Notes: generated by a model not told the origin, from the letters alone. A stretch of DNA of 64,000 bases from an uncultured Verrucomicrobiota bacterium (GCA_937996795.1 CALKUH010000038.1:31516-95515), one strand, 5' to 3'; positions 17,841 to 45,176 are shown, counted from the stretch's first letter. Program-made: numbers and translations.

Positions 17841-17978
17841 TTTACCACGGAGACACGGAGCACTCGGAGAGTACAACCACGAATAGACACGAATGCACAC
17901 AACTCATAAAGCATACGGATTCGTGTTCATTCGTGATTCGTTTCTTCTCCGCGTCCTCCGTGCCTCCGTGGTGAATTT
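17841..17978. repeat. ~135-bp compound imperfect palindrome that fills the convergent EamA/murJ intergenic gap.
   Basis: The outer arms (accacggagacacggagcactcggagag and its near-reverse-complement ctc..ctccgtgcctccgtggt) and the inner arms (cacgaatagacacgaatgc and gattcgtgttcattcgtgattcg) surround a ~18-nt loop. The region is AT-richer than its surroundings. Confidence 0.5.
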
Positions 17979-19649
17979 TTACTTCGCGACGCGGCGGCGC
18001 AGGGCGTCGCGGGCGAAGCCGAGTTCGGGGGCGCGCAGCGCGAGGGCGGCGCCGAAGTAAGCGGCGATGCCGGTCGCGATGGCGAGCAGGACGGATCCGA
18101 CTTCAACCAGTTTGGCTGGCGCACCGGACTGCGCGAGGCCCGCTGCCAGCGCGGGACGGACGGCGAGCAGGATCACCGCCATTACGGCGGAGCACGCCAG
18201 CGCACGCGACGCCGCCGCAAACACCGGACGCCACTCCAGCGCGCCGAGACGCCGCTGGAGCAGGACGCCGAGCGTGATGCCGTTGACGCCCTCCGACAAC
18301 ACCGTCGCGAACGCGAGCCCGGCGTGTTTCAGGTCGTGCGGCCACGTCAGCACGAACGCCACGTTCAATGCAAAATTCAGCGCGACCGCGCGCAGCCCGA
18401 TGCGGAACGGCGTGCGCGTGTCCTGCAATGCGTAGAAGGCGGGCACAAACACCTTCGCGAGGCAGAACACCATCAGGCCCGGCGCGTAGAATTGCAGCGC
18501 GATGGCGGTGTGCGACACGGCGGCGGCGTCGAACCGGCCCCATCCGAAAATCATCTGCACGATCGGCTCCGCCAGCACGAGCAGGCCGATGGACGCGGGG
18601 ATCATCACGAACAGCAGCGTGCGCAGCGAATGACCCAGTGTCTGGCGCATCTCCGCGTGGTCGCCGCGCGCCGCGTGCCCGGAAAACACCGGCAGCAGCA
18701 CCGTGCTCATCGCCGTGGCGAGCAGGCCCTGCGGGAAATACAGCAGGCGCTCGGCGTAAAACAGCGACGCGGGCGCCCACTCCGCGGCCCAGCGCGCGAG
18801 CAGCGTGTTGACCATCACATTAACCTGCGTCACCGACTGGCCCAACGCGGTGGGGCCCATCAGCGTGAATACGCGCCGGACGCGCGCATCCGACGTATCC
18901 CACGTGAACCCCGGCCGGAACCCGCGCCGCATCAGCGCCGGCACCTGCACACCCATCTGCACGAGGCCCGCGACGAAGACGGCCGCCGCGATGCCGTAGA
19001 TCTGCTGCTCCGGCGTGTCGCCAAGACGCGGGCAAACCAGCAGCACGAACCCGATCCACACCATGTTCAGCAGGCTCGGCGTGAACGCGGGCAGCGAGAA
19101 CTGGTGGCACGCGTTGAGCATCGCCATGAACAGGCCCGCGAGGCAGATGAACACCACGTACGGCAACATCACGCGCATCAGCGGCAGCAGGTGCGGCGCG
19201 CGCTCCGCGAGGTCGGGGTTCAACCCTTCGAGGGCAAAGGTCCCGAGGATGAGGAGGAGGACGAGGAGCGAGAGGAAGGCCGCCACGAGCGTCACGGTCT
19301 TGCGCGCGACGAGCCACGCGGAGGCATCGCCCTCCTCGCGCCGGGTCGCCATGAACACGGGCACGAAAGCCGACGACAAGGCCCCCTCGCCGAAGAGGGC
19401 GCGGAAGAGGTTGGGCAGGCGGAACGCGACGACGAAGTCCGACATCACCGCGCTGGTGCCGAAGAGGCTCGCGGTCAGCGTGTCACGCACCAGCCCGAGC
19501 ACGCGGCTCAGCGACGTAAAGCTGCCAACCTTGAAGGCCGAGCGGATGACGCGGTTTTTCTCCACAGAGCGCTGGATGATGCCGGGAAGCGCACGGGAAC
19601 GGAAGCCCGATTCCAAAACCCGCCCGATCCGGCGGGTGACGCAACTCAA
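17979..19649 (-). CDS. murJ: Lipid II flippase MurJ/MviN.
   Basis: LSRVLGLVRDTLTASLFG…FVVAFRLPNLFRALFGEGALSSAFVPVF, with 14 TM helices. The exact start is uncertain. Confidence 0.8.
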   Translation of the reverse strand: MSCVTRRIGRVLESGFRSRALPGIIQRSVEKNRVIRSAFKVGSFTSLSRVLGLVRDTLTASLFGTSAVMSDFVVAFRLPNLFRALFGEGALSSAFVPVFMATRREEGDASAWLVARKTVTLVAAFLSLLVLLLILGTFALEGLNPDLAERAPHLLPLMRVMLPYVVFICLAGLFMAMLNACHQFSLPAFTPSLLNMVWIGFVLLVCPRLGDTPEQQIYGIAAAVFVAGLVQMGVQVPALMRRGFRPGFTWDTSDARVRRVFTLMGPTALGQSVTQVNVMVNTLLARWAAEWAPASLFYAERLLYFPQGLLATAMSTVLLPVFSGHAARGDHAEMRQTLGHSLRTLLFVMIPASIGLLVLAEPIVQMIFGWGRFDAAAVSHTAIALQFYAPGLMVFCLAKVFVPAFYALQDTRTPFRIGLRAVALNFALNVAFVLTWPHDLKHAGLAFATVLSEGVNGITLGVLLQRRLGALEWRPVFAAASRALACSAVMAVILLAVRPALAAGLAQSGAPAKLVEVGSVLLAIATGIAAYFGAALALRAPELGFARDALRRRVAK

Positions 19650-19789
19650 CGAAACCCGGCCCCAAGTGTCAGACCTTTTCGCGCCCGTTCGTTGTCCGCA
19701 TGGCGCTTGACGGGGTGACCTGCAAAACCTAGGCTTTCCGGCTTATTTCAACCCAGAAACACACACCCGAAACGCGCTCGTAATTCCTT

Positions 19790-22700
19790 ATGTCCAAAAG
19801 TCTTGACGAAAAAATCAAGGGGGCGCTCCTGCCCGGGGATCAAACGCAGCCGGATTTCTTCGACAAGAAGACAGGTCCTTTTTTCCGACGCGCGGACTGG
19901 TGGGCCTTCTGGGTCACGTTCCTCCTTTCATTCGGCGTCTATTTCTACACCAACGCGCCGACGGTGACGCTGGAGGACTCGGGCGAACTCGCGGTGGCCT
20001 CCGACTATCTCGGCGTGCCGCATCCGCCCGGCTACCCGATCTGGACGCTGGTCACGTGGTTCTTCCAGTGGATTTTCCACTGGGTTCGCTATTACGGCCA
20101 GCCCGACGGCAACCTCACGCTTGTCCTTCGCTCGCTAAAGGACGTCATGGATGGCGGCGGTTTCCAGGGTCATCCGAACCCGGCGTGGTCGGTCGGGTTG
20201 TGCTCCGGATTCTTCAGCGCGCTCTCGGCCGCGTTCCTCGCGCAACTCGTCAGCCGCTCCGGCGCCGACATCCTGCGCGGACTCGGCAAGACGACGGAAC
20301 TGATCGGCATCCAGAAGGAATCGCTGATCTGCTGGGTGGCCGGCGTCACCGGCGGCCTGCTCTTCGCCTTCAGCCCGGTGCTGTGGTCGCAGGCGACAAT
20401 CGTCGAAGTGTACGGCATGAACGCCTTCTTCATGGCGTTGACGATGCTGCTGATGTACCGGTGGATGTGCAGGCCCCACGAGGACAAGACGCTTTACGTC
20501 ACCGGCTTCGTGTTCGGCCTCGGGTTGACGAACCACCAGGCGCTGCTCTTCATGGCGCCGGCCCTGCTCACCGCGATCGCGCTGCGCGATGTGCGACTGT
20601 TCCGCGACGCCATCGCGGGCGCGTTCTGGCTGATGGCGGCGGTCCTGTTCGCCCTCGCCTACAAGATGGGCGCGGTCACCGCGGCGGAAAACATCCAGGC
20701 CAAGCAGGGCCTCATCGTCGTGGGGCTGATCTTCCTCGCCTCGCCGATTGGCGTCTTCCTGATCGAGCGCAAGCTGATGACGGAGTGGAAGCGCGTGCTG
20801 ATCCTCGTCGCCGCCGCCGGCCTCGGCCTCTCGTTCTACGCCTACCTGCCGTTCGCGTCGGAACAGAACCCGCCGATGAACTGGGGCTACCCGCGCACGC
20901 AGGAGGGCTTCATCCACGCCGTCTCGCGCGGCCAGTATGAGAAGATCGACCCGGCCGCGAACTTCCGCGACGCCATCGCGCGCCCCGGCTACTTCGGCAA
21001 GATGCTCGAGGACGTGATCGTGGACCCCGTCGGCTACGTCTCGGTCGTCGCGCAATTCACCTGGGCCATCTCCCTCTTTGCGCTCTTCTGCCTGTTCGCC
21101 ATCCCCTCGCTGCTGATCTACAACCGCGTCAAGGCCGGGGCAACCTTCGGCGAGGCGCTGGGCCGGACGGCGGGCGTGTGGTTCATGTGTTTCCTCGCCC
21201 TTTTCCTGATCCCGCTGTTATGCGTCGCGCTCTTCACGATGCTGTTCCCGATTCCCGCCCCGCTGATCCTCGTCGTGTGCGGCATCCCCGCCTGCCTCGT
21301 GCTGATCCGCATGCACCACTGGTTCGATGAGGACAAACTCGGCAGCGGCGTGCGCTGGGTGCTGACCTCGTTCGTCATGTTCCACTCGCTCACGGTGATC
21401 TTCCTGATCTTCCAGTGGCCGAAACTCGACGTGCAGACGCTGTTCATCGGCCGCGTGCAATACATCCAGTCCCACGCGATCTGGGCGATGTGGATCAGCT
21501 ACGGCATGCTGCTCGCCGTCGCCTGGCTCGACACCGCGCTCAAGGGCAACCGGCTCGTGCTCTACGCCGGCTGCGCGCTGATCCTCTCCCTCTCCGCCGT
21601 GCCCGTCCTGAAAAACGCGTACGATGACAAATTCATCCAGCTCGTCGGCGGCGCGGAGCAAAATGGCCACGACTTCGGCTGGCAGTTCGGCGCGTGGCAG
21701 CTTGAGGGCGCCGCCGCCATCCGCGCGGAAATTTCCGAGGAGGAGCGCGCGGCCTTCCCGAACCCCGACTACCCCCCGCGCATGACCACCAACGCGGTCT
21801 TCTTCGGCGGCACCGACCCGGGCCGGTTCGTGCCGACCTACATGATCTACTCCGCGCACTACCGCTCGGACGTGTTCCTCATCACGCAGAACGCGCTCGC
21901 GGACAACACCTACATGAACGTGATGCGCGACCTGTACGGCGACCAGATCTGGATCCCGTCGCAGCAGGACAGCAACTTCGCGTTCCAGCGCTATGTCGAG
22001 GACGTGCGCGCCGGGCGCATCCAGGCGGGCGCCGACGTCTCGTTCGAGGGCGGCCGCGTCAGCGTGCAGGGCGTGCAGGGCGTCATGACGATCAACGGCA
22101 TCCTCGCGCGCATGATCTTCGAGGCGAACAAGGCCAAGCACGACTTCTATGTCGAGGAAAGCTACGTCATCCCGTGGATGTACCCCTACCTCACGCCGCA
22201 CGGCCTGATCATGAAGATCAACAAGGAGCCGGTTCCGGAAATCACGCCGGAGATGGTGAAGAACGACCGCGAGTTCTGGGACTGGTACACGAAGCGCCTC
22301 ACCAGCAACCCGAAATTCGTCCGCGACGTTGTCGCGCGCAAGACCTTCTCCAAGCTGCGCAGCGCCATCGCGGGCCTCTATGCCTACCGCCGCCTTTTCG
22401 ACGAGGCGGAGTACGCGTTCCAGCAGGCGATCGACCTCTATCCGCTCAGCCCGGAGGCCAACTTCCGCCTCGCCGACATTGAGATGCAGCAGTTCCGTTT
22501 CACAAAGGCGCGCGAGGTGATTGAGGCCTTCCTCAAGGAAGATCCGGGCAACGACCGCGTCGCGGAGTTCCTCGTGCAAATCCGCCAGCTCGAGACGCTC
22601 GACAACCGCCGCCGCGAACTGGAACCGCAGATGGCGCAGGGCGCCGACGTGAACCTCGCGCTCGAACTGGCCGACATCTACCGCCAGATGAACATCATGC

Positions 22701-23083
22701 ACCTCTTCGAGAACCTGACGCAGAACATCCTGCGGCAGGACCAGCTCCCGCCCGCCATCTACCTGCGCATTGCCGAGATGTACGCGGGCGCGCAGCGCGG
22801 CGACCTGCTCGTCACCGCGCTCGAACGCTACCTGCAAAAGGAGCCGTCCAACCCGCGCATCTGGTTCGACCTCGCCGGCGTGCAGGCGCAATTGCAGCGC
22901 AGCAACGACGCCATCCGCACGCTGCGCCGCGCGATTGAACTCGGCGGCGAAGCGGTCCGCGACATGGTGCGGAAGGACCGCCGCTTCGACCCGCTGCGCG
23001 ACGCGCCGGAATTCCGCGCAATCGTCCCGCCCGTCCAGTCGCGCCTCGACCTCCCGGTCAACCTGAACATCCCCGGGCTGTAA
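19790..23083 (+). CDS. DUF2723 (TMEM260-like GT-C-fold) polytopic membrane protein with a C-terminal TPR-repeat domain. Putative protein/lipid glycosyltransferase.
   Basis: The N-terminal DSGELAVASDYLGVPHPPGYPIW block is typical of DUF2723. More than 15 TM segments. C-terminal TPR-like helices (AGLYAYRRLFDEAEYAFQQAIDLYP…). Confidence 0.65.
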   Translation: MSKSLDEKIKGALLPGDQTQPDFFDKKTGPFFRRADWWAFWVTFLLSFGVYFYTNAPTVTLEDSGELAVASDYLGVPHPPGYPIWTLVTWFFQWIFHWVRYYGQPDGNLTLVLRSLKDVMDGGGFQGHPNPAWSVGLCSGFFSALSAAFLAQLVSRSGADILRGLGKTTELIGIQKESLICWVAGVTGGLLFAFSPVLWSQATIVEVYGMNAFFMALTMLLMYRWMCRPHEDKTLYVTGFVFGLGLTNHQALLFMAPALLTAIALRDVRLFRDAIAGAFWLMAAVLFALAYKMGAVTAAENIQAKQGLIVVGLIFLASPIGVFLIERKLMTEWKRVLILVAAAGLGLSFYAYLPFASEQNPPMNWGYPRTQEGFIHAVSRGQYEKIDPAANFRDAIARPGYFGKMLEDVIVDPVGYVSVVAQFTWAISLFALFCLFAIPSLLIYNRVKAGATFGEALGRTAGVWFMCFLALFLIPLLCVALFTMLFPIPAPLILVVCGIPACLVLIRMHHWFDEDKLGSGVRWVLTSFVMFHSLTVIFLIFQWPKLDVQTLFIGRVQYIQSHAIWAMWISYGMLLAVAWLDTALKGNRLVLYAGCALILSLSAVPVLKNAYDDKFIQLVGGAEQNGHDFGWQFGAWQLEGAAAIRAEISEEERAAFPNPDYPPRMTTNAVFFGGTDPGRFVPTYMIYSAHYRSDVFLITQNALADNTYMNVMRDLYGDQIWIPSQQDSNFAFQRYVEDVRAGRIQAGADVSFEGGRVSVQGVQGVMTINGILARMIFEANKAKHDFYVEESYVIPWMYPYLTPHGLIMKINKEPVPEITPEMVKNDREFWDWYTKRLTSNPKFVRDVVARKTFSKLRSAIAGLYAYRRLFDEAEYAFQQAIDLYPLSPEANFRLADIEMQQFRFTKAREVIEAFLKEDPGNDRVAEFLVQIRQLETLDNRRRELEPQMAQGADVNLALELADIYRQMNIMHLFENLTQNILRQDQLPPAIYLRIAEMYAGAQRGDLLVTALERYLQKEPSNPRIWFDLAGVQAQLQRSNDAIRTLRRAIELGGEAVRDMVRKDRRFDPLRDAPEFRAIVPPVQSRLDLPVNLNIPGL

Positions 23084-23103
23084 CCCGCGCGCCGGGCGCG
23101 CGG
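23084..23103 (+). terminator. GC hairpin (ccgcgcgc-cgg-gcgcgcgg) immediately after the stop of the DUF2723 gene.
   Basis: 8-bp perfect GC stem with a 3-nt loop. No U-tract, so intrinsic-terminator status is uncertain. Confidence 0.3.
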
Positions 23104-23156
23104 ATTCGGGAACTTGGGACTTGGAACTTGCGCCGCGCGGCGAATACTGGTTGTTG

Positions 23157-24140
23157 ATGTCGCGCTCTTCCACACGACTCCGCCGGCTGGCCTTCGCGTG
23201 TCCCCTGCTGCTCGTATGCGCCCTCTTCCTCGGCCCCGGGTGGCGCGAGCCGTGGACGCTGCTGGATGCGGAACATCGCGGCATCCTCGCGCTGCGCGGC
23301 TGGCGCGTGTTGCTCGGCGCGGTGAGCGGGGCCTCCCTGGCCGCGGCGGGCGTCGTGCTGCAGGCGATCCTTCGCAATCCGCTCGCGGAGCCCTATATCC
23401 TCGGCGTGTCCGCGGGCGCGGGCGTGGGCGCCGCCTCGGCGATCGTGTGGGGCGGCCTGGCGCTCGGCGCGCTGATCCTGCCGATGGGCGGATTTGCCGG
23501 CGGACTGCTCAGCCTGATGGCGGTGTACAGCCTCGCGCGCGTGGACAGCCGCACGGCGCCGCACACGCTGATCCTCGCGGGCGTGGCGTGGGGCGCGCTG
23601 TGCAGCAGCATCCTGATGTTTTTCGTTTCACGTTCGAGCGCGGAGGGGCTCCACGCGGTGTCGTGGTGGTTCCTCGGCGACCTGCAAGTCTACGACACCG
23701 GCCTCGTCGCCGCGGTCGCCCTCGTGAACACGCTGGCGCTGCTCGCCATCGGTTCGCAGGCGCGCTCGCTGGACGCGTTGACGCTGGGTGATGAACTGGC
23801 GGGACACCTGGGCCTTCCGACGGAACGCCGGAAGCTCATGCTGCTCGCCCTCGGCACCCTGCTCGCGTCGGCCAGCGTCAGCGCCTGCGGGTTGATCGCC
23901 TTCGTCGGCCTCGTGATCCCGCACGCCGCGCGCAGCCTGGTCGGCCCCGGACATCGCCGCCTGCTGCCCGCGTCCATCCTGCTCGGGGCCGCCTTCCTCG
24001 CGCTCGTGGACGGGCTGGGACGCACGCTGTTCTACCCCGTTGAAATTCCCGTCGGCATCTTCACCGCGCTCGTCGGCGCGCCCTTTTTCCTCGCCCTGCT
24101 GCGAAGGAAACGCCGCGACATGTGGGGGCACGGCCCATGA
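23157..24140 (+). CDS. FecCD-family ABC transporter permease (iron-siderophore/cobalamin type).
   Basis: LQAILRNPLAEPYILGVSAGAG… FecCD signature. ATGA overlap with the ATPase gene. Confidence 0.8.
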   Translation: MSRSSTRLRRLAFACPLLLVCALFLGPGWREPWTLLDAEHRGILALRGWRVLLGAVSGASLAAAGVVLQAILRNPLAEPYILGVSAGAGVGAASAIVWGGLALGALILPMGGFAGGLLSLMAVYSLARVDSRTAPHTLILAGVAWGALCSSILMFFVSRSSAEGLHAVSWWFLGDLQVYDTGLVAAVALVNTLALLAIGSQARSLDALTLGDELAGHLGLPTERRKLMLLALGTLLASASVSACGLIAFVGLVIPHAARSLVGPGHRRLLPASILLGAAFLALVDGLGRTLFYPVEIPVGIFTALVGAPFFLALLRRKRRDMWGHGP

Positions 24141-24910
24141 ACGCCGTCGCGCTTTCCGCCGTGCGTGTCACCACCGGCTACCGGCGGCTGCCGGTGCTGC
24201 ACGAACTTTCCGTGACCGCCGCGCCGGGCGAGGTGCTCGGCTTGATCGGCCCCAACGGCGCGGGCAAAACCACGCTGCTCCGCCTGCTGAGCGGCATCCA
24301 CGAGCCGTGGACCGGCCGCGTCCTGCTGGGTGACCAGCCGCTCGCCGGGTTCAGCCCCCGCGAACGCGCGCGCCACATCGCGTTCGTCCCGCAGGGCGTC
24401 ACCATTCCCGTTCCGTTCACCGTCGCGGATGTCGTGGCGATGGGCCGCGTGCCCTATCTCAGCGGCTGGGCGCCGCTCGCGCCGGCCGACGAAGCCGCCG
24501 TGCGGCAGGCGCTTGAGCAGGTCGGGCTGGCCGACCGGGCGGACACGTCCATCCACGCGCTGAGCGCCGGGGAACAGCAGCGTGCGCTGCTTGCGCTCGC
24601 GCTCGCCCAGCAGCCCCGCGTGCTGCTGCTCGACGAACCGACCGCGCACCTCGACCTGCACCACGCATGGCATCTCATGGAACTGGTGCGCGACCTCGCG
24701 CGCGCCCAGGCGCTGGTCGTCGTGCTCTCCACGCACGACCTCTCCCTCGCCGCGTCGTGCTGCACCCGCCTCGCGCTGCTGGAAAAGGGAACGCTCGCCG
24801 CCAACGGAAGCCGCGACGACGTGCTGCGCGCCGACCTCCTGTCAGGCGTCTACGGCCATGCGCTCGGCGTCACGGTCGCGAACGAACGCTGGTGGGTGCA
24901 TCCGGCGTAG
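24137..24910 (+). CDS. ABC transporter ATP-binding protein (FepC/BtuD-like).
   Basis: Walker A GPNGAGKTT, signature LSAGEQQR, Walker B LLLDEPT. Confidence 0.85.
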   Translation: MNAVALSAVRVTTGYRRLPVLHELSVTAAPGEVLGLIGPNGAGKTTLLRLLSGIHEPWTGRVLLGDQPLAGFSPRERARHIAFVPQGVTIPVPFTVADVVAMGRVPYLSGWAPLAPADEAAVRQALEQVGLADRADTSIHALSAGEQQRALLALALAQQPRVLLLDEPTAHLDLHHAWHLMELVRDLARAQALVVVLSTHDLSLAASCCTRLALLEKGTLAANGSRDDVLRADLLSGVYGHALGVTVANERWWVHPA

Positions 24911-24918
24911 GACGAGGT

Positions 24919-25401
24919 TCAGAGCCAGCCCAAATGCAGGGCGGCGCGATAAATCGCGTGGTTCACCGCCAGCGCGTAGAGCGCGGCAAAGACGTCGTCG
25001 ATGACAATGCCGACGCCGCCGGTCAGGCGCTGGAGTCCGTTCGCCGGCCAGATCTTGGCGATGTCGAAGAAGCGGTTGGTGACGAAGGCGACCGCCATCA
25101 TCACGAGGCCGTGCGGGTGATCCCACACCGGCAGGCCGATCATGCAGATCGGGAACGTCAGGTACTCGTCCGCCACGCAGGGCTTCGGATCCTTCGTCTT
25201 CAACTGGTTTTCGACGGCCTGGCTCAGCGGCACGGCGATGAGCGTGCAGAGGATCGCGATGATGATTTGCGCCGGCACATCGAAGCGGTTGTTGATCCAC
25301 CACACGAGCGGAAGGCCGAGCAGGCAGCCGGCGGTGCCCGGCGCAAACGGGCTGTAGCCGAGGCCAAAACCCGAACCGATGAAAGCGAGCACACGATTCA
25401 T
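24919..25401 (-). CDS. pgpA: Phosphatidylglycerophosphatase A.
   Basis: FIGSGFGLGYSPFAPGTAGCLLGLPL… PgpA family. Confidence 0.8.
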   Translation of the reverse strand: MNRVLAFIGSGFGLGYSPFAPGTAGCLLGLPLVWWINNRFDVPAQIIIAILCTLIAVPLSQAVENQLKTKDPKPCVADEYLTFPICMIGLPVWDHPHGLVMMAVAFVTNRFFDIAKIWPANGLQRLTGGVGIVIDDVFAALYALAVNHAIYRAALHLGWL

Positions 25402-26993
25402 GGGCGTTCCTCCTTCGCGGGTGGCGCGACTTCATCCGGCGCGCCGAGTTGGAACTCGTACTCGAGTCCGTCCTGCACCGGACGCGCCCAGAGGTGCAGG
25501 GTTTTCAGCGGCGCGAGCGTGTCGATCCACGCCTTCGCATCGTTCAGGCGCTGGCGGGTCGCCTGCGAGGCGCGCGGGTCTTCAATGAGCAGTTTCAACG
25601 ACCAGGCCGTCACCGCGAGGCGCATGATCCTGGCGCCCTCCTCCAGGTCCATCCACAGGTACCCCAGCGCGTGCTGGTCGCGCATGCGCTGGATGCCCTG
25701 CGCCATCCGGCCGGGCTCCGCGGGCGGGGCCGACGCCGCCTCCGCGAGCAGTTTCTGCAAGGTTTCGAGGTTGCTGCTGAACACCACGCTGCGCGCGAAG
25801 GGGACATACGCGATGCGCTCTTTTTCCTCCAGGCCGGCATAGGTCGAGCGCCCGGTCGCTTCGATCGCATACACGCGCTGCGTATCGATGCGGATCGTCT
25901 GCGGCACGAGGCCCCATGGCGTCGCGGCATTGAGCCGGTCGAAGGCCTGGTGAAGCGCAAGCACGGCATGGCCGGCGTCGAGCGTGGGCACCGAGGCCAT
26001 CAGCGTCGGCAGGCGCACGGCCATGAAGCGCCCACTGTATTTCCCGCCGAGCAGCGCGAGCGCCACGGCCCCGGGCTCGTAGCTCTGCACATAGGCCGCC
26101 ACTTCGCGGCCCACCGGATTCGTGAACGCCTGCTGCAACCAGTGCGCCGCCAGCGCGCGATGCACGACAAGGCCGGCCGCGGGATGCGCGCGCACGAGGT
26201 CGGAAAATTCGTCCACGCTGCCCTGCGGCGGCGGCACCAGCAGTTGCGGCGGACGGCTCGGGCTGAAGACCGTGCCGGAGAGGCTGCCGGACGGGTACAG
26301 CTTCAGCGTGTAGCGCACCGGCGGCGCGCCGGGCGTGCGCACCCATCCGCGATCCGGCGCGTCCCGGGGCGGCGCCACCTGCAGGTCGGGGCGGTCGGCA
26401 AGGGACGGCAGGTGCCCGTCGTAGCACGCCAGCACATCCTCAATGCCCAGCGTGTCGGCGGCGATGCAGCCCACCAGCATCCCCTCGACGATGGAGAACG
26501 TGATGCGCTCGCCGTGCTTCATGCCCTTGGGCGTCCACACCCAGACGTGCCAGCCGTTGCGGCTCGAGGCGCGGCGCACATTCGGATCCTTCATCGACTT
26601 CAGCGTCCAGCGCAACCGCTGGCTGCCGCCGCCCAGCCACGCGCTGAACACCCAGGCCGGACGCCCCGTGATGCGCATCTCGGGCACATACGCGAGAAAG
26701 AGATCGTTCGCGGCCAGCGTATCCAGGAAGCGCTGCGTGTCCGGACTCACCGCCTGCTCGTCCCACTCCTCCGGGTCCGCGCCGAGGGCCAGCGCCACGC
26801 TCGTCGTCAGCGGATTCTTGCGCAGGGTCTCCCAGCGCCCGGCCAGGTCGTGATGCGCCGTCAGCCACGTCGCCTGGGCCGGAATCGCGCGATACAGGTC
26901 CTGCGGGCGGGCCGGCACATGGAACGCCCACCACACGGTGACCGCCACGGACGCCACGAGCAGCGTCCAGAAGATGAGCGGGCGACGCTTCAT
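25398..26993 (-). CDS. Hypothetical membrane-anchored protein (531 aa), unknown function.
   Basis: Start at MKRRPLIFWTLLVASVAVTVWW (N-terminal TM). It overlaps pyrD and pgpA by 4 nt each. The upstream 175 codons of the track ORF are rejected. Confidence 0.5.
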   Translation of the reverse strand: MKRRPLIFWTLLVASVAVTVWWAFHVPARPQDLYRAIPAQATWLTAHHDLAGRWETLRKNPLTTSVALALGADPEEWDEQAVSPDTQRFLDTLAANDLFLAYVPEMRITGRPAWVFSAWLGGGSQRLRWTLKSMKDPNVRRASSRNGWHVWVWTPKGMKHGERITFSIVEGMLVGCIAADTLGIEDVLACYDGHLPSLADRPDLQVAPPRDAPDRGWVRTPGAPPVRYTLKLYPSGSLSGTVFSPSRPPQLLVPPPQGSVDEFSDLVRAHPAAGLVVHRALAAHWLQQAFTNPVGREVAAYVQSYEPGAVALALLGGKYSGRFMAVRLPTLMASVPTLDAGHAVLALHQAFDRLNAATPWGLVPQTIRIDTQRVYAIEATGRSTYAGLEEKERIAYVPFARSVVFSSNLETLQKLLAEAASAPPAEPGRMAQGIQRMRDQHALGYLWMDLEEGARIMRLAVTAWSLKLLIEDPRASQATRQRLNDAKAWIDTLAPLKTLHLWARPVQDGLEYEFQLGAPDEVAPPAKEERP

Positions 26994-37502: not shown

Positions 37503-40500
37503 ATGGGCATGACGATCCCGATTGGTCAACAATTTTACGCCAAACCACCTTCTCCCTGTTCCAGCTTCTCCCGCCGGGTGCTGGCAGGGCTTTTTTTGTG
37601 GTCCCTGGCAACCCTCACCTCGTTCGGTGGGGTGGTGATCTCCGGCGGCGGGCTGGCGCTCGTGGAGGAGGGTGGAGGTTTTGCGGAAGGAAATATGGCG
37701 ACCAACGGAACCGCGTTCGCGAAGGATACGATCGGCGCGGGACCGCACACCATCGCCGGCGTGAACGACGGTTTGTACGGAAACAGCAGCAGTTGGATTG
37801 GCGGCACCGCGAACAGTTTCGTGGGCATCCGTTTCGGCGCGATCCCGATGCCGTTGTACAAAGTGGCGTTCGGACGCGACAACCTCAGCAACTTTACCGA
37901 TCGCGTCTTCGGCCTCTACACCCTTCAGTACACCACGGTCGCCGATCCGGACGAGTCGACGCCGGACGCGGCATGGAACACCATCGGCACGCTGGATTAC
38001 CAATCGGCCGGCGGGACCAACTTCGCCAACCCGATCCTGCGGCACGCCTTCACCTTCCGCGAGGTGCTGGCCACCGGCTTCCGCATCAAGACCGACAGCG
38101 CAACCGACCACATCGCCATCGATGAAATCGAACTCTACCGCCCCGGCATCACCGTGTCCGGAGGCGTGCGGCTGGCGGCCGAAGGCGGTTCGTTCCATTC
38201 CAACAACCTGGCCGCCAGCGGTGTGGCGTTCGCCAAGGATGAGCTTGGCTCGCCGCCCCATTCGATCGGCGCCGTGAACGACGGCGCGTACGGCAACACC
38301 AACAGCTGGATCGCGGGCAGCACGAATTCATGGATCGGCATCAGCCTCGGCACCTCGCCGGTGACCGTGGCCCGGATCGCCTTCGGCCGCGACAACACCG
38401 GCATCTTCGCCGACCGCGTGTTCGCCACCTACACCCTGCAAGTCACAACGGTCGCCGATCCGGATGAAACCACCCCCGACGCCGCGTGGACCACCATCGG
38501 TGCGATGCAGTACACCCGGCCGGGCGGTATGCTGTTCAACGCTCCCGCCCTCCGCCACGAATTCGCCTTCGCCCCGGTTCCGGCCACCGGCATACGCCTG
38601 CGCATCGACGGCGCGGCCGACATCGACAACATCGTCGCCATCGACGAGCTGGAAGTCTACGGTCCGCCCCTCCTCCGCCTCGAGCATCCGCCCGGACGCA
38701 CCCACGCCATGAAAACGAAGGTGTCGGTGTGGGGCGAAGACGGTGCCGGCCAAACCACCGTCCCGACCAACACCGTCGGCGCCGTGTCGGTCGTGGCCGC
38801 GCCCGGCCGGATCGCAGTGTTGACGCCGACCCGCTCGTTCACCGGCTGGGGTTCGACCTACCCGACGCTGAACACGGACCCCGCGGGCCGCTCGGGCCTC
38901 CGGCAAATCGCGTCCGGCTGGTTCCACAACCTCCTGCTGACGAGCAACGGGAGCATCGCCGCCTGGGCGCATACCAACGCGTTCGGCGAGGGCGATGTTC
39001 CGCCCGCCTTCACGAACGGCAACGTCCAGGCGGTGGCCGCCGGGTTCCGGTATTCGGTGGCGCTGACCGGGGCGGGTAGCGTAGTCGCCTGGGGCGACAA
39101 CAGCGCCGGCCAGACCAACGTACCGCCGGGCCTGACCAACGTGCAGGCCATCGCCGCCGGGTACGCGCACGTCGTCGCGCTGGCGAACGATGGAACCGTC
39201 ACCGCCTGGGGCCTGAACGATGCGGGCCAGACCAACGTGCCGCCGGGCTTGAGGGGCGTGAAAGCCATCGCCGCCGGGGATCACCACACGCTCGCGCTCA
39301 CCACCAACGGCACCGTCGTGGCGTGGGGCGGGAACGCGCACGGGCAGTCCACCGTGCCGCCGGGCCTGTTCGGCGTGCAGGCGATTTCGGCGGGATCGCT
39401 GCACAGCGTGGCGTTGCTCGATGACGGCCGCCTGGTATTCTGGGGCACCAACGCCCTCGGACAAATGACCGTCCCGGATCGCATCAACCTCGTCCGCACG
39501 GTGTCCGCGGCAAGCCAGGTCACCGCGGCGATCTATTCCGAACACGTCCCGATGGCGTTCGGCCCCGTCCCGTCCGGAAGCGTAACCTCGAAACTCTTCA
39601 CCGTGTACAACGACGGAACCGGCCCGCTGGCCATCACGCACATCGACCTCCGCGATTTCGATGCGGAGGTGTTCGCGCTGGACACCGGCGCCACCGCCAC
39701 CGTGATTCAGCCCGGCGGCAGCACCACCCTGACCGTGACGTTTGCGCCGACGAACACGGCCGCCGTGGAAAGCACCTTGTACCTCGAGACCGATGACCCG
39801 GACCGGCCCGTGTTCGCCTTCGCCGTGAACGGGAACCAGCCGGACCCGATCCCGCCGCTCATCACCACCCCCGGCAACCTGGCCGTGCCCACCACCAACC
39901 TTTCCGGGACGGTGGTCACCTACGACGTGCTGGTCGAGGACAATGCCGATCTGGATCCGCAGGTGACCATCACGCCACCAAGCGGCAGCCTATTCCCGCT
40001 CGGCATGACAACGGTGGTGGTACGCGCGGTCGACTTTTCCGGCAATACCTCCACCGCCTCGTTCGTGGTCAATGTGACCCTGCCGACGCCGGTGCTAATC
40101 GAGACCGGCGGCAGCTTCGCGACCAACAACCTGGCGTCCGGTGCGACGGCGTTCGCCCAGGACCAGGCCTTCTTTCCCACCCACAGCATCGCGGCGGTGA
40201 ACGACGGCGTGTACGGCAACGCCAGCAGTTGGATCGGGGTCAGCCCTGCCAACTTCATCGGCATCAACCTCGGCGCCACGCCCGTCGCGGTGGAACAAAT
40301 CGCCTTTGGCCGCGACAACAACGGGAACTTCGGCGACCGCGTGCAAGGCGTCTATACCGTCCAGTTCACCACCACGCCGAATCCCGACGCGGCCACGCCG
40401 GCGTCCGCCTGGACCAGCTTCGGATCGATCGTGTACCCGGGCGCAAGCCCTTTGCCGGCACGGCGCAACCGCTACGCCTTCCAGCGGGTTGAAGCCACCG

Positions 40501-43500
40501 GCATCCGGCTCCTGACGCAAACCGATTCGCTGCCGGTGGCCATCGACGAAATCGAACTCTACGACTACAACCCCATCCCTTTCATCGTCATCGAACAACC
40601 GGCGGGCAACGCGCTGGTTTCCGGCGTTTCCACCATCAATTTCGGCACGCGCGAAGCCGGGACGTCCGGCCCGACGAACACCTACACCGTGCGCAACGCC
40701 GGCGGGGTGCTCCTGAACATCACGAACATAGCGACCATCGGTTCCAACGCGACGGACTTCATCGTGACCCCCGCAAGCGGCTGGCCGAGCCTGCCGACGA
40801 ATTCGAGCACGACCTTCCACGTCGTCTTTCAACCCTCCGGCGTCGGCCCCCGCAGCGCCACCCTCCGCGTGCAAAACAGCTCCAGCAACGAACCGGTGTT
40901 CGACATCCACCTCACCGGCATCAGCGCGGACACCACACCCCCGGTGATCAACATCCCTTCCAACCAGTTCGTGTACATCACGGAAGGCACCGGCTCGGTG
41001 GCGACCTTCACCCTGCCCAGCGCCACCGACAACTCCAGCCTCCCGCCGACGGTCTCGACCGAACCGGAGAGCGGCTCGTTCTTCCCGCTCGGCACGAACA
41101 CCGTGACCATCACCGCCACCGACAGCGTGAACAACAGCGCAACCGGGACGTTCGCCATCATCGTCCGGCCGCGTGCACGGATCGCGGTGGAGGCCCCGGC
41201 GGGATCGGCGCTCACCGGCGCACCGCCGTCCTACGCCTTTGGCTCCCTGCTCGTGGGCGCGACCACGTCGCAGACCTTCGCCCTGGTCAACGACGGACTG
41301 GCCGCGCTCGCGATCTCCGGCGCCAGCGTCATCGGCGCCCATCCCGCGGAGTTCGTGCTGGAAACCTCCGGCCTGTCGCCGTCGATCGGCATCGGCGGCA
41401 CCAGCCATTTCGCGGTGACCTTCGCACCGCTGGCCCATGGCGCACGCACCGCCACCGTGCGCCTCGTCACCGACGATCCGGTGACCCCGTTCCTGGATGT
41501 GCACCTGGCCGGCGACGGCCTGGACATCACGCCCCCCGTCATCACGCCGCCGGCCGCCTTCTCCGTGGTCGCGGGCTCGCCCACCGGCGGCGTGCGCGTG
41601 TTCTATCCGCCGATCGCGGTGACGGATGACGCGATCAGCGCCGTCGACGTGGTCGTGGATCCGGCGAACGCCAGCCTCCTGCCCCCCGGCACGAACCTCG
41701 TGACCGTCACCGCCACGGATCCCGGGAGCAACACCTCCACCGCCACGTTCGAGGTCGTGGTCGTGCCGGCCGTCTATCCGCCGGAGATCCCGGTCGGCGG
41801 ATCCGTTCCCTTCAACCTGGCGCTGGGAAGAACGGCGTTCGCCAAGGATTTCCTCGGTGCTCCGCACCTCATCCCGACGCTGAACGATGGCGTGTACGGG
41901 AACGCGAACGGCTGGATCGGCAACTCGCCGAACAGTTTCGTCGGCATCAACCTCGGCGCGACACCGGTGGAGGTCAACCGGGTCGCCTTCGGCCGCGACC
42001 ACAAGGGTTCGTTCATCGATCGCACGATCGGCACCTACACCCTGCAATACACCACGACCGCCAACCCCGACGCCGCCACCCTCGACTGGCACACCATCGG
42101 CGCGGTCACCTACACCGCCGATTTCACCAACCGCGCCCGCCGCAACGTCTATGCCTTCCCACCGGTGATGGCGACCGGTATTCGCCTCCTCACCGCGGCC
42201 GGCGAATTCCCGCTCGGCATCGACGAACTGGAAATCCACGGCCTGCCCGGCGCGATGTCGCTGGAACAACCGGCCGGGGCCGCGCTGACCTCCGGCATAT
42301 CCGTCGTCACTTTTGATCCGCGCGACCTCGCCACCGCCAGCGCGCCGAAAACCTTCACCCTCCGCAACCCCGGCCCCGGCGCGATGCGCATCACCCGCGT
42401 GGCGGTCACCAACGATCAGGTCGGCGAGTTCATCCTCGCTCCGACCAACCTGTTCACCACCCTGGCCGCCGGGGCCACCACGACCTTCCAGGTGGTCTTC
42501 CAACCCGTGGCGCTCGGGCCCCGGCAAACCACCCTGCGCGTGACCGCCGACAACACCCAACTCGCGGTCATGGAGGTGGCCCTCGCCGGAACCGGCGTCG
42601 ATGTATCCGGCCCGGTCATCGTGCCCCCCGCCAACATCATCCGGTATATAGCAGACACCGAAACCAACGTCGTGGTGACCTACCCGCCCGCCGTGGCCAC
42701 CGACAATTCGGGGCTCGCTCCCGTCGTGACCTATTCGCATCCCAGCGGCAGCGCGTTCCCGGTGGGCAGCAACGTCGTCACCATCACCGCGGTGGACGCC
42801 TCCAGCAACACCTCGACCGCCACCTTTGTCGTGGACGTCCGGTATTCGCCGACGCTCACGCCGGAGATCCCGGAAGGTTCCCCGTTCGTGCTGGACAACA
42901 CCGTCCAGGTGTGGGGCGCACTGCCCGGCGGGGTGGCGCCGCCCGCCAACCTGTCGAACGCGACCGCGGTATCGATCGGCAACCAGCACGGCTTGATCCT
43001 GCTGGGCGATGGAACAGTCACGGCGTGGGGCAACGACGAATTCGGCCAGAGCACGGTTCCCGGCGGCTTGTCCAACGTCGTCGCTATATCGGCAGGGTCC
43101 TGGCACTCGCTGGCGCTGAAGGCGGACGGCACGGTCGCCGGCTGGGGCACCCACGATACATCCCTGCCAGTGGCCCCACCGATCACGATTCCGCCCGGCC
43201 TGACCGGTGTCGTGCAGGTCAGCGGCGGCTTTTATATGTCCGCCGCGCGTTTCACCGACGGGACGATTACCGTCTGGGGCGAAAACGACGCCGGGCAACT
43301 GGATGTCCCGCCCGGGTTGACCAACGTTGTGGACATCAGTTGCGCGAGCGAACACTGCCTGGCCCTGCTCGCGAACGGCACCGTCGTCGCCTGGGGTGAT
43401 AACAGCGAAGGCAAGGCCACCGTTCCCTCCGGCTTGTCCAACGCGGTTCAGGTCAGTGCGGGCGCAAGTTTTTCCGTGGCGCTGCGCTCCGACGGATCCG

Positions 43501-45176
43501 CACTGAGCTGGGGGCAAAACAGCGGGAATGCATTCGGCGCCCTGACGGTCGCGACGAACCTCGTGGAGGTCCGGGCCGGCGCCGCACACATCAGCGCCCG
43601 TCGCGCCGATGGCACCATCGTGGTCTACGGGCCCGCCGAATCGCCTCAGGTGACCGGCGCGGCGGCCGTTGAGGATGCCCTCTCGCTTGGCAGTTGGATG
43701 TTGGACTCTGTGGCCGCGGTGGTGAAGGATTGGCCGTCCCTTGACTTCGGCGCGGTCCCGGTGGGCGAACGCGTCACCAACACCGTGGTGGTGCGCAACA
43801 CCGGCCTGGGTTCGTTGAGCCTGACCAACCTCGTGCTGGTCGGCGCGGACGCCGGCCAGTTCCAGGTGGACGCTTCCGCCGGCGCGATGCCCGTCGCCAG
43901 CGGCGATGCGACTATGCTGTCGATCATCTTCACACCCGCCGGACCGGCCGGCGCGCGGGCGGCGACCCTGCGACTGTTCAGCAACGACCAGCAGGTCCCT
44001 CTCTGGAAACTGCGGCTCAGCGCCCAGGCCACGGACGACGAGCCGCCGGTGTTCACCTCCACGAACGCGATCATTGCCTACGCCAGCGAAACCGGCGGCG
44101 TGCGGGTGCTGATCCGGCCACCGGCCACCGATAACAGCGGGGTTCCGCCCTCGGTGATCGCAACGCCCTTGAGCGGAAGCTTGTTCCCGCTCGGCACCAA
44201 CCCTGTCACGGTGGTCGCCACCGACGAGTCCGGCAACGCCGCCACCTCCTCGCTCCAGGTGATCGTGCGGTTTACCGACACGCTGCCGGCGGTCGGGCCG
44301 TCCGATCCGGTGCCGCCCAACCTCGCGCGCAACCAACCGGCCTTTGCTCTGAACGTCACCTTTTTCCTGCCGCACAGCATTCCCGCGCTCAACGACGGGA
44401 TGTATGGCAACGACAGCAGTTGGATCGGGCTGACACCGAACAGTTTCGCCGGCATCAACCTCGGCGCCACGCCGGTCTTGCTCGACCGCATCGCCTTTGG
44501 CCGCGACAATACCGGCATCCAACTCACCCGCGCCCAGGGAACCTACACGGTGCAGGTCACGACGGTGCCGAACCCCGACACGAGCACGCCCGATAGCGCG
44601 TGGCAGACCATCGGGGTCATCGAGAATCCCGGACAGGTGGATCATCCGTCCCGCCGCAATCTCATCGCGTTTGCTCCGGTCCACGCCACCGGGGTTCGCT
44701 TGAACGTCGCGAGCGCGAGCGCAGAAATTGCCATCGATGAAATCGAACTGTACGGTCCGCCGGCGCCGTTCGCGGCTTGGCGGGCGGCCCACTTCACACC
44801 GGGCGAACAGCTCGACGGCGCGATCAGCGGCCCGCTCGCCGATCCCGGCCAATCCGGCGTGGCGAATCTCTACCGCTACGCCACCGGGCTTGACCGGGAG
44901 GACGATCCGAAACCCGCGTTGCCCCGGCTACAGGGTCTCCAGTTCATCTACCGGCGCCTGCTCGATCCGGAGTCCGGCGTCGACTATTTCGTCGAGATCT
45001 CCACGAACCTGCCGAACGCCGCCGCCTGGCGCGAAATTGAAAGCGCCGACGGCATCACCGAGGCCAGTGCGACTCCCAATCCTGACGGCATCACCGAAGA
45101 CGTCCGCATGAGCATCCCGCCCGGAACGGTCAATCCGATCCTGAATCTTCGATTGAAGGTGTCGCAGGAGGAGTAG
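37503..45176 (+). CDS. Giant (2557 aa) secreted/surface modular protein. It contains 5 discoidin/galactose-binding-like modules, 5 ASH-like (choice-of-anchor-D) domains, 5 HYR domains and 2 RCC1 beta-propellers.
   Basis: The ~160-aa module NDG.YGN.SSWIG…GI.LG..PV…IAFGRDN.G…YT.Q.TT…PD..TPD.AW.TIG…ATG.RL…IAIDEIELY occurs 5 times. RCC1 repeats (GQTNVPPGL…VAWG) occur in two blocks (~38.7-39.5 kb and ~42.9-43.65 kb). HYR and ASH domains alternate. Confidence 0.75.
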   Translation: MGMTIPIGQQFYAKPPSPCSSFSRRVLAGLFLWSLATLTSFGGVVISGGGLALVEEGGGFAEGNMATNGTAFAKDTIGAGPHTIAGVNDGLYGNSSSWIGGTANSFVGIRFGAIPMPLYKVAFGRDNLSNFTDRVFGLYTLQYTTVADPDESTPDAAWNTIGTLDYQSAGGTNFANPILRHAFTFREVLATGFRIKTDSATDHIAIDEIELYRPGITVSGGVRLAAEGGSFHSNNLAASGVAFAKDELGSPPHSIGAVNDGAYGNTNSWIAGSTNSWIGISLGTSPVTVARIAFGRDNTGIFADRVFATYTLQVTTVADPDETTPDAAWTTIGAMQYTRPGGMLFNAPALRHEFAFAPVPATGIRLRIDGAADIDNIVAIDELEVYGPPLLRLEHPPGRTHAMKTKVSVWGEDGAGQTTVPTNTVGAVSVVAAPGRIAVLTPTRSFTGWGSTYPTLNTDPAGRSGLRQIASGWFHNLLLTSNGSIAAWAHTNAFGEGDVPPAFTNGNVQAVAAGFRYSVALTGAGSVVAWGDNSAGQTNVPPGLTNVQAIAAGYAHVVALANDGTVTAWGLNDAGQTNVPPGLRGVKAIAAGDHHTLALTTNGTVVAWGGNAHGQSTVPPGLFGVQAISAGSLHSVALLDDGRLVFWGTNALGQMTVPDRINLVRTVSAASQVTAAIYSEHVPMAFGPVPSGSVTSKLFTVYNDGTGPLAITHIDLRDFDAEVFALDTGATATVIQPGGSTTLTVTFAPTNTAAVESTLYLETDDPDRPVFAFAVNGNQPDPIPPLITTPGNLAVPTTNLSGTVVTYDVLVEDNADLDPQVTITPPSGSLFPLGMTTVVVRAVDFSGNTSTASFVVNVTLPTPVLIETGGSFATNNLASGATAFAQDQAFFPTHSIAAVNDGVYGNASSWIGVSPANFIGINLGATPVAVEQIAFGRDNNGNFGDRVQGVYTVQFTTTPNPDAATPASAWTSFGSIVYPGASPLPARRNRYAFQRVEATGIRLLTQTDSLPVAIDEIELYDYNPIPFIVIEQPAGNALVSGVSTINFGTREAGTSGPTNTYTVRNAGGVLLNITNIATIGSNATDFIVTPASGWPSLPTNSSTTFHVVFQPSGVGPRSATLRVQNSSSNEPVFDIHLTGISADTTPPVINIPSNQFVYITEGTGSVATFTLPSATDNSSLPPTVSTEPESGSFFPLGTNTVTITATDSVNNSATGTFAIIVRPRARIAVEAPAGSALTGAPPSYAFGSLLVGATTSQTFALVNDGLAALAISGASVIGAHPAEFVLETSGLSPSIGIGGTSHFAVTFAPLAHGARTATVRLVTDDPVTPFLDVHLAGDGLDITPPVITPPAAFSVVAGSPTGGVRVFYPPIAVTDDAISAVDVVVDPANASLLPPGTNLVTVTATDPGSNTSTATFEVVVVPAVYPPEIPVGGSVPFNLALGRTAFAKDFLGAPHLIPTLNDGVYGNANGWIGNSPNSFVGINLGATPVEVNRVAFGRDHKGSFIDRTIGTYTLQYTTTANPDAATLDWHTIGAVTYTADFTNRARRNVYAFPPVMATGIRLLTAAGEFPLGIDELEIHGLPGAMSLEQPAGAALTSGISVVTFDPRDLATASAPKTFTLRNPGPGAMRITRVAVTNDQVGEFILAPTNLFTTLAAGATTTFQVVFQPVALGPRQTTLRVTADNTQLAVMEVALAGTGVDVSGPVIVPPANIIRYIADTETNVVVTYPPAVATDNSGLAPVVTYSHPSGSAFPVGSNVVTITAVDASSNTSTATFVVDVRYSPTLTPEIPEGSPFVLDNTVQVWGALPGGVAPPANLSNATAVSIGNQHGLILLGDGTVTAWGNDEFGQSTVPGGLSNVVAISAGSWHSLALKADGTVAGWGTHDTSLPVAPPITIPPGLTGVVQVSGGFYMSAARFTDGTITVWGENDAGQLDVPPGLTNVVDISCASEHCLALLANGTVVAWGDNSEGKATVPSGLSNAVQVSAGASFSVALRSDGSALSWGQNSGNAFGALTVATNLVEVRAGAAHISARRADGTIVVYGPAESPQVTGAAAVEDALSLGSWMLDSVAAVVKDWPSLDFGAVPVGERVTNTVVVRNTGLGSLSLTNLVLVGADAGQFQVDASAGAMPVASGDATMLSIIFTPAGPAGARAATLRLFSNDQQVPLWKLRLSAQATDDEPPVFTSTNAIIAYASETGGVRVLIRPPATDNSGVPPSVIATPLSGSLFPLGTNPVTVVATDESGNAATSSLQVIVRFTDTLPAVGPSDPVPPNLARNQPAFALNVTFFLPHSIPALNDGMYGNDSSWIGLTPNSFAGINLGATPVLLDRIAFGRDNTGIQLTRAQGTYTVQVTTVPNPDTSTPDSAWQTIGVIENPGQVDHPSRRNLIAFAPVHATGVRLNVASASAEIAIDEIELYGPPAPFAAWRAAHFTPGEQLDGAISGPLADPGQSGVANLYRYATGLDREDDPKPALPRLQGLQFIYRRLLDPESGVDYFVEISTNLPNAAAWREIESADGITEASATPNPDGITEDVRMSIPPGTVNPILNLRLKVSQEE

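Follow-up and report, generated by a model that had tools for sequence, protein, structure and literature searches.

A 2557-residue Verrucomicrobiota protein with five copies of a predicted galactose-binding-domain-like module

Domain architecture of the giant protein

The window analysed here, a 64,000-nucleotide stretch of DNA from an uncultured Verrucomicrobiota bacterium (GCA_937996795.1 CALKUH010000038.1:31516-95515), contains at 37503..45176 (+) a single ATG-to-stop open reading frame (ORF) for a giant protein of 2557 amino acids (aa). The ORF is real; a 56.6-kb Joint Genome Institute (JGI) metagenome contig carries a gene call for an identical product of 2557 aa, and NCBI/ENA hold a 2555-aa version that starts two codons later. 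The protein bears five copies of a ~165-aa module, for which we predict the fold of CBM32 carbohydrate-binding modules (CBMs) and F-type lectins, set among immunoglobulin (Ig)-like domains and propellers.

For the domain map, the segments between modules were scanned singly against Pfam, and profiles built from the protein's own repeats were then applied. The resulting order is SP-M-M-RCC1-ASH-HYR-M-ASH-HYR-ASH-HYR-M-ASH-HYR-RCC1-ASH-HYR-M-CT, where SP is a signal peptide, M the module (M1 to M5) and CT a C-terminal domain (Table 1). Together, the signal peptide and 18 binding- or spacer-type domains cover all 2557 residues. Five modules with conserved DE-type ends, five ASH-like and five HYR domains and two RCC1 blocks, placed after module 2 and after HYR-4, had been proposed in an initial annotation made from the sequence, and all are present in those numbers and places. 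That annotation missed the signal peptide and the 138-aa CT. Its picture of a fivefold module, ASH, HYR repeat is right in the counts of elements but too regular, since only M3 and M4 directly precede an ASH-HYR pair: M1 and M2 stand in tandem, the pair ASH3-HYR3 lacks a module, and M5 is followed instead by CT.

Table 1. Features of the giant protein and their positions in the window.
Feature	Residues (aa)	Window position	Strand	Remarks
Signal peptide region	1-43	37503..37631	+	positively charged n-region, hydrophobic core aa ~26-44, then FGG/VVISGGG
Module 1	44-213	37632..38141	+	predicted divergent galactose-binding-domain-like / CBM32-like beta-sandwich
Module 2	215-387	38145..38663	+	tandem with M1; missing in close relatives P0122 and P0242
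RCC1-like propeller A	~400-675	38700..39527	+	RCC1_2 E=1.8e-43, WD40_RLD E=2e-37
ASH/choice-of-anchor-D 1	~673-775	39519..39827	+	HYDIN_VesB Ig E=1.6e-10, ASH E=1.7e-9, NF012200
HYR 1	780-859	39840..40079	+	PF02494 E=3.5e-8, 34 bits
Module 3	855-1021	40065..40565	+	repeat alignment, own-repeat profile
ASH/choice-of-anchor-D 2	1033-1137	40599..40913	+	HYDIN_VesB Ig E=2.2e-6, NF012200, own-profile 142 bits
HYR 2	1142-1222	40926..41168	+	PF02494 E=1.7e-15
ASH/choice-of-anchor-D 3	1232-1335	41196..41507	+	best NF012200 stretch 1231-1326; no module before
HYR 3	1340-1421	41520..41765	+	PF02494 E=2.9e-7
Module 4	1418-1580	41754..42242	+	ends LGIDELEIHG
ASH/choice-of-anchor-D 4	1590-1694	42270..42584	+	ASH E=7.9e-6, NF012200
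HYR 4	1699-1780	42597..42842	+	PF02494 E=1.1e-14
RCC1-like propeller B	~1795-2072	42885..43718	+	RCC1_2 E=1.5e-39, WD40_RLD E=1.1e-38
ASH/choice-of-anchor-D 5	2069-2172	43707..44018	+	ASH E=9.9e-8, DUF1573 E=2.9e-17
HYR 5	2177-2256	44031..44270	+	PF02494 E=2.9e-10
Module 5	2254-2418	44262..44756	+	repeat alignment, own-repeat profile
C-terminal domain CT	2420-2557 and stop codon	44760..45176	+	motif W..HF...ISGP.ADP..G..NL.RYA.GL.

The HYR, ASH and RCC1 assignments are significant in domain-library scans. HYR (PF02494) matches five separate domains at 31-57 bits each against a cut-off of 21.7 (167 bits in total, E=1e-49), and the choice-of-anchor D model of NCBIfam (NF012200) matches five stretches with 192 bits against a cut-off of 45. 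Pfam ASH (109 bits) and HYDIN_VesB Ig (123 bits) recognise four of these five stretches; ASH domain 3, with no Pfam ASH match at 1e-5, is assigned from NCBIfam. RCC1_2 finds ten stretches (238 bits, E=1e-72) and WD40_RLD reaches 228 bits against a cut-off of 150. Propeller A has seven WG-type blades at ~39-aa spacing, starting at aa 407, 446, 485, 527, 566, 605 and 644. A motif scan gave six blade starts in propeller B, and inspection of the translation by eye added a seventh, VQVWG at aa ~1803. The two blocks, 44% identical to each other, are thus predicted to be seven-bladed RCC1-like propellers.

A further family, PF27332.1, appears in the precomputed Pfam lists for this protein/P0121 and for P0125-P0127, P0134, P0188 and P0222. 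It goes with proteins rich in HYR, a mucin-like protein of sea urchin among them, and is not the module, since single-module proteins lack it.

A divergent galactose-binding-domain-like module

The five modules end in [IVL][AG][IVL]DE[IL]E[IVL][YH] at aa 212, 386, 1020, 1579 and 2417. Their pairwise identity is 46-55%, with 46 invariant columns, and their DNA is 68-73% identical. Among 108 family members the H, R, R and W positions of the module signature are invariant or at least 90% conserved, and the spacing H-x42-RDN-x6-R is fixed in all five copies. A scan of the window with the own-repeat profile found no further module copies outside the gene.

An AlphaFold model of M1, made from the 108-sequence alignment, has a predicted local distance difference test (pLDDT) score of 94 and a predicted template modelling (pTM) score of 0.90. 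Foldseek searches with it place the CBM71 of BgaA, several CBM32s and lectinolysin first, and the great majority of the top-ranked structural neighbours bind carbohydrates. From this model the module can confidently be assigned a galactose-binding-domain-like beta-sandwich of the CBM32/F-lectin fold. By sequence it forms a family of its own, for which current domain libraries have no model. The modules have no NCBIfam match. Profiles run against PDB sequences gave marginal matches at best, with E values of 0.12 for a 5-sequence profile and 0.046 for one of 108 sequences.

Sugar-binding members of this fold are marked by His/Arg pairs at equivalent positions, and the defining fucose-binding motif of F-type lectins is HX24RXDX4(R/K) (PMC5712786). 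By the strand order of the model, the conserved residues of the module fall mostly in the alternate loops L2-3, L4-5, L6-7 and L8-9, which would lie at the same end of the sandwich as the binding sites of CBM32s and F-type lectins.

Distribution of the module and its domain grammar

A word-indexed profile search retrieved 182 small module proteins of 140-305 aa. Many of these carry a signal peptide and a PEP-CTERM tail, and the few that are named come mostly from Verrucomicrobiota. When 1.84 billion representatives were searched exhaustively with HMMER, 1,742 proteins matched at E≤1e-3, 1,341 of them at E≤1e-10, and most of the best matches hold 2-11 module copies. In large relatives the module is accompanied by CotH, lamin-tail, TSP3, LamG and cadherin-like domains and by autotransporter-associated repeats; all are extracellular types and, CotH apart, of an adhesion kind.

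Domain order was also compared among 87 other large module proteins, a set whose counts are biased by its retrieval through similarity to the giant. A module is followed by ASH 71 times, ASH by HYR 48 times, and HYR by a module in 56 of 67 cases. Contiguous M-ASH-HYR triplets number 34 and occur in 21 of the 87 proteins, while P0136 is a perfectly regular (M-ASH-HYR)x5-M. The grammar, which had been thought unusual and possibly undescribed, is therefore a recurrent theme typical of the lineage and not unique to this gene.

Three loci with single-module proteins were also inspected (L049 7015-9968, L050 8001-9936 and L051 661-8550). Small Laminin_G_3 proteins adjoin in two of the three, as do SBP_bac_10 pseudopilin-like genes (with N_methyl in L049), and two sulfatases adjoin the single-module protein of L051. 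These neighbours hint, though weakly, at an extracellular context related to glycans.

Orthologues and age of the repeats

The nearest named relatives come from metagenome-assembled genomes labelled ‘Kiritimatiellia bacterium’ and ‘Verrucomicrobiae’. Two proteins, P0123 and P0124 (2552 and 2556 aa), are 62-64% identical to the giant and have exactly the same architecture; both are named ‘choice-of-anchor D domain-containing protein [Kiritimatiellia bacterium]’. P0126, at 45% identity, has nearly the same. A scan of genome contigs gave one Verrucomicrobiae relative at 45% and otherwise RCC1-only matches in other phyla. Conservation of the architecture at 45-64% identity implies selection on the whole array.

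Each module best matches the module in the same position of an orthologue. For P0123 the diagonal values are 72-78% against 43-57% off the diagonal, and the diagonal is weak but present even in P0126. This positional orthology means that the duplications predate these lineages. Recent slippage can be rejected, the DNA copies being 60-75% identical except for one 29-nucleotide stretch at 90%, and the ancient duplications first proposed for the array are borne out. Whether repeat number differs between strains had been raised as a question, and it does: P0122 and P0242 (2376 and 2377 aa), whose modules are 86-93% identical to those in the window, lack M2, so that copy number varies among close relatives.

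The orthologues also bear on a possible eukaryotic origin. In the initial annotation RCC1, HYR and ASH were called eukaryote-associated, and one could imagine a horizontally acquired eukaryote-like protein whose RCC1, HYR and ASH domains are captured adhesion or cilium domains. A HYR-rich mucin-like protein of sea urchin, P0188, is indeed among the matches, and the Pfam names ASH, HYDIN and Cep192 stem from eukaryotic proteins. However, the best matches over the whole length are bacterial and the eukaryotic match spans 5% of the query. The NCBIfam model for choice-of-anchor D is a bacterial one, phyla such as Chloroflexota, Actinomycetota and Myxococcota have RCC1-like relatives, and our searches met RCC1-like and HYR arrays in many bacterial phyla, so that the eukaryotic label is misleading. 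The GC content of the gene (0.65-0.68) is that of the remainder of the window, and positional orthology of the modules speaks for a long vertical history. Capture from a eukaryote is thus very improbable.

Export and the C-terminal domain

Two stretches exceed a Kyte-Doolittle hydropathy of 1.6. One, at aa 26-46, is the only strongly hydrophobic one at either terminus; the other lies within ASH3, where a single window near aa 1259 passes marginally. A comparable hydrophobic N-terminus directly precedes module 1 in all orthologues, and this N-terminus is by sequence a signal peptide predicting Sec export. The extracellular location suggested at the outset gains support since the signal peptide is conserved and single-module relatives carry signal peptides and PEP-CTERM tails. 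The giant itself ends ...LRLKVSQEE, with neither a hydrophobic tail nor a match to PF07589 (VPEP motif, transmembrane helix and Arg-rich tail at the C-terminus), and does not qualify as a PEP-CTERM protein. Searches of the whole protein with Pfam and NCBIfam gave no match to RTX nonapeptide repeats, a C-terminal type I secretion system (T1SS) signal, an autotransporter beta-barrel translocator or a type IX secretion system (T9SS) C-terminal domain, the sole T9SS line being a 16-bit fragment against a cut-off of 420. The whole protein contains three Cys.

CT is a conserved domain of 138 aa in which short helices lead into an Ig-like sandwich of six strands. It lies at or near the C-terminus of at least 25 proteins, including lamin-tail/CotH proteins of ~2000 aa. 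As CT has no family match, and as multi-CBM32 arrays are typical of large secreted glycoside hydrolases, such as those among the structural matches to the module, we considered whether the giant might carry an enzyme or toxin. It would then resemble multi-CBM glycoside hydrolases or polymorphic toxins, its catalytic or effector domain being cryptic. No catalytic family was matched on the whole protein by Pfam, NCBIfam or the own-repeat profiles, and since the domain boundaries abut, a hidden catalytic domain or disordered linkers would hardly fit. We give this possibility very little credence.

Functional interpretation

The reading that we favour, at about even confidence, is of a Sec-exported, non-catalytic, multivalent glycan-binding fibre serving adhesion or polysaccharide capture. 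The giant would be a rod-like, non-enzymatic extracellular protein of a bacterium of the Planctomycetes-Verrucomicrobia-Chlamydiae (PVC) group, exported by Sec, in which ten Ig-like domains (ASH then HYR) and two propellers hold five CBM32/F-lectin-like modules apart. Because the family's invariant polar and aromatic residues are present in every one of the five modules, each is predicted to be a working binding site, and together they could bind a repetitive glycan multivalently. Possible targets are polysaccharides, glycosylated surfaces and the exopolysaccharide of the cell itself, and the purpose would be adhesion or substrate capture. The propellers might offer further ligand surfaces, and CT may serve to keep the protein at the cell surface or to sort it there.

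Several observations weigh against this reading. The modules do not reach the gathering threshold of 28.2 bits for Pfam F5_F8_type_C (PF00754): M4 has a sub-threshold match to it (16.1 bits, E=0.013), its only Pfam match, and the other four have none at E≤10. The discoidin-like label first given to the module therefore holds for the predicted fold but not for the sequence. A regular-expression scan of the protein shows HX24RXDX4(R/K) to be absent, and by this motif the modules do not class as F-type lectins. The clustering of conserved residues into a putative pocket derives from topology, not from coordinates, and glycan binding is a prediction for every member of the family. Neither a PEP-CTERM nor another recognised anchor was seen in the giant with Pfam, NCBIfam or hydropathy. 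No CAZyme (carbohydrate-active enzyme), exosortase or secretion-system partner adjoins the gene, and the gene context is not kept between orthologue loci.

An alternative, which we regard as unlikely, is a structural or protein-binding surface protein whose modules contact protein or lipid and whose array is a scaffold. Such a scaffold could be a component of a surface layer or sheath, or could act in cell-cell cohesion or in attachment to prey or host. Against it stand the structural neighbours of the module, overwhelmingly carbohydrate binders at the top ranks, and the conserved His/Arg/Trp-rich signature, of a kind typical of sugar sites (PMC5712786). In addition, two of the three single-module relatives lie beside Laminin_G_3 genes and one beside sulfatases.

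The glycan-binding fibre can be taken further, although only tentatively and with a good deal less assurance than the fibre itself. The module may constitute a new CBM family, structurally between CBM32 and the F-type lectins and with its own H / RDN / R / W signature, apparently confined for the most part to Verrucomicrobiota, Kiritimatiellota and a few other phyla (few hits carry a taxon name). It might be specialised for a glycan class used by these polysaccharide degraders, for example sulfated or fucose-rich glycans. M-ASH-HYR would then be a lineage-specific ‘lectin-on-a-stalk’ cassette that has been shuffled among proteins, and CT an unrecognised retention or sorting signal.

Comparison with known systems

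Familiar domains of related fold include the CBM32/F5-F8 type C domains, such as the chitosan-binding DD1 of the Paenibacillus chitosanase (4zxe) and those of Clostridium perfringens multi-CBM32 enzymes. The module is only 12-21% identical to these, is ~30 residues longer, has a long conserved H...NDGxYGN..SWI loop and here comes without an attached catalytic domain. Compared with F-type lectins (Anguilla agglutinin 1k12, striped bass FBP32 3cqo; CBM47), it has H-x42-RDN-x6-R and lacks the Cys-Cys bridge. The CBM71 of Streptococcus pneumoniae BgaA (4cua, 4cub and 4cu9) provides the top Foldseek matches, at E 2e-6, and was also the only marginal match in the PDB at sequence level, where the similarity (E 0.046 over the last three strands) is not significant. 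BgaA resembles the giant as a large surface protein bearing non-catalytic modules with Ig-like spacers, but is a sortase-anchored Gram-positive beta-galactosidase, whereas the giant has no catalytic domain or comparable anchor.

In RTX adhesins such as MpIBP, LapA and SiiE, long strings of Ig-like extenders present binding modules, some of them sugar-binding, away from the cell. The giant differs in having an N-terminal Sec signal peptide and no matches to RTX repeats, a type I secretion signal or an N-terminal retention module, and its modules are spread along the rod, not clustered at a tip. A further comparison is with uncharacterised giants of Verrucomicrobiota/Kiritimatiellota named as ‘choice-of-anchor D / HYR domain-containing’: P0123, P0124, P0126, P0136, P0134 (Brevifollis gellanilyticus) and P0145 (Prosthecobacter) share the module family and the M-ASH-HYR order rules. 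They vary in copy number and in extra RCC1, cadherin-like, autotransporter-associated repeat, lamin-tail and CotH domains.

Among giant bacterial proteins of other lineages, extracellular RCC1 arrays and discoidin repeats have been described (10.1101/2023.11.21.568195). Our literature searches found nothing specific on this architecture or module, and no characterised family member. All the folds are already known, as is the adhesin or multi-CBM design of binding modules on Ig-like extenders, and public databases already list the protein and its orthologues, under generic names. What is new is the CBM32-like sequence family missed by the libraries, its M-ASH-HYR arrangement and the unassigned CT.

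Genomic context

Upstream of the gene, on the opposite strand, lie the housekeeping genes rpmE, prfA, prmC and ffh; downstream are a DUF5684 gene and then thrS. As neighbours vary among the orthologous loci, context indicates no functional partner, and we rejected gene neighbourhood as a functional clue.

Two features of the orthologous loci are absent from the window. In two orthologue lineages (L002-L004 9095-9850 and L048 7193-7951) the gene is immediately preceded, on its own strand, by a GerE/LuxR-type regulator of ~251 aa. This regulator is missing from L001 too and may be a dedicated one that has been lost or moved. Downstream of orthologues is a variable island (L001 17808-27659; L002-L004 ~17900-26100) with genes for DNA methyltransferases, ParB_N, a ResIII helicase, HARE-HTH and an antitoxin, which looks defence-related or mobile.

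Inside the gene, an antisense ORF of 1585 aa occupies window 40095-44852 (-), along with two others of 329 and 437 aa. No family matches any of the three, and we reject them as genes, reading them as shadow ORFs of GC-rich coding DNA. Between window positions 38001-44000 the coding strand has more C than G, with a GC skew of -0.09 to -0.15 that is stronger than in most of the window and presumably due to the Ala/Thr/Pro/Gly-rich composition of the protein.

Elsewhere the window encodes a 1256-aa protein with a CBM6 domain as its sole match (7623-11393, +), an alpha-amylase/CBM48 enzyme with an Ig_N_CWD1 domain (4641-7337, +) and a 1097-aa TMEM260-like glycosyltransferase with TPR repeats (19790-23083, +).

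Implications

Verrucomicrobiota and Kiritimatiellota rank among the major degraders of complex polysaccharides, and their genomes are rich in giant unannotated surface proteins. The present analysis defines a module family of roughly 1,700 clusters and places it, from the structural model, in the CBM32/F-lectin fold. Should the modules prove not to bind glycans, the giant would simply join the large repetitive surface proteins whose role is unknown. If they do bind, they would represent a new CBM family and the protein a new multivalent lectin scaffold, and CT would be pointed to as a candidate surface-anchoring signal.

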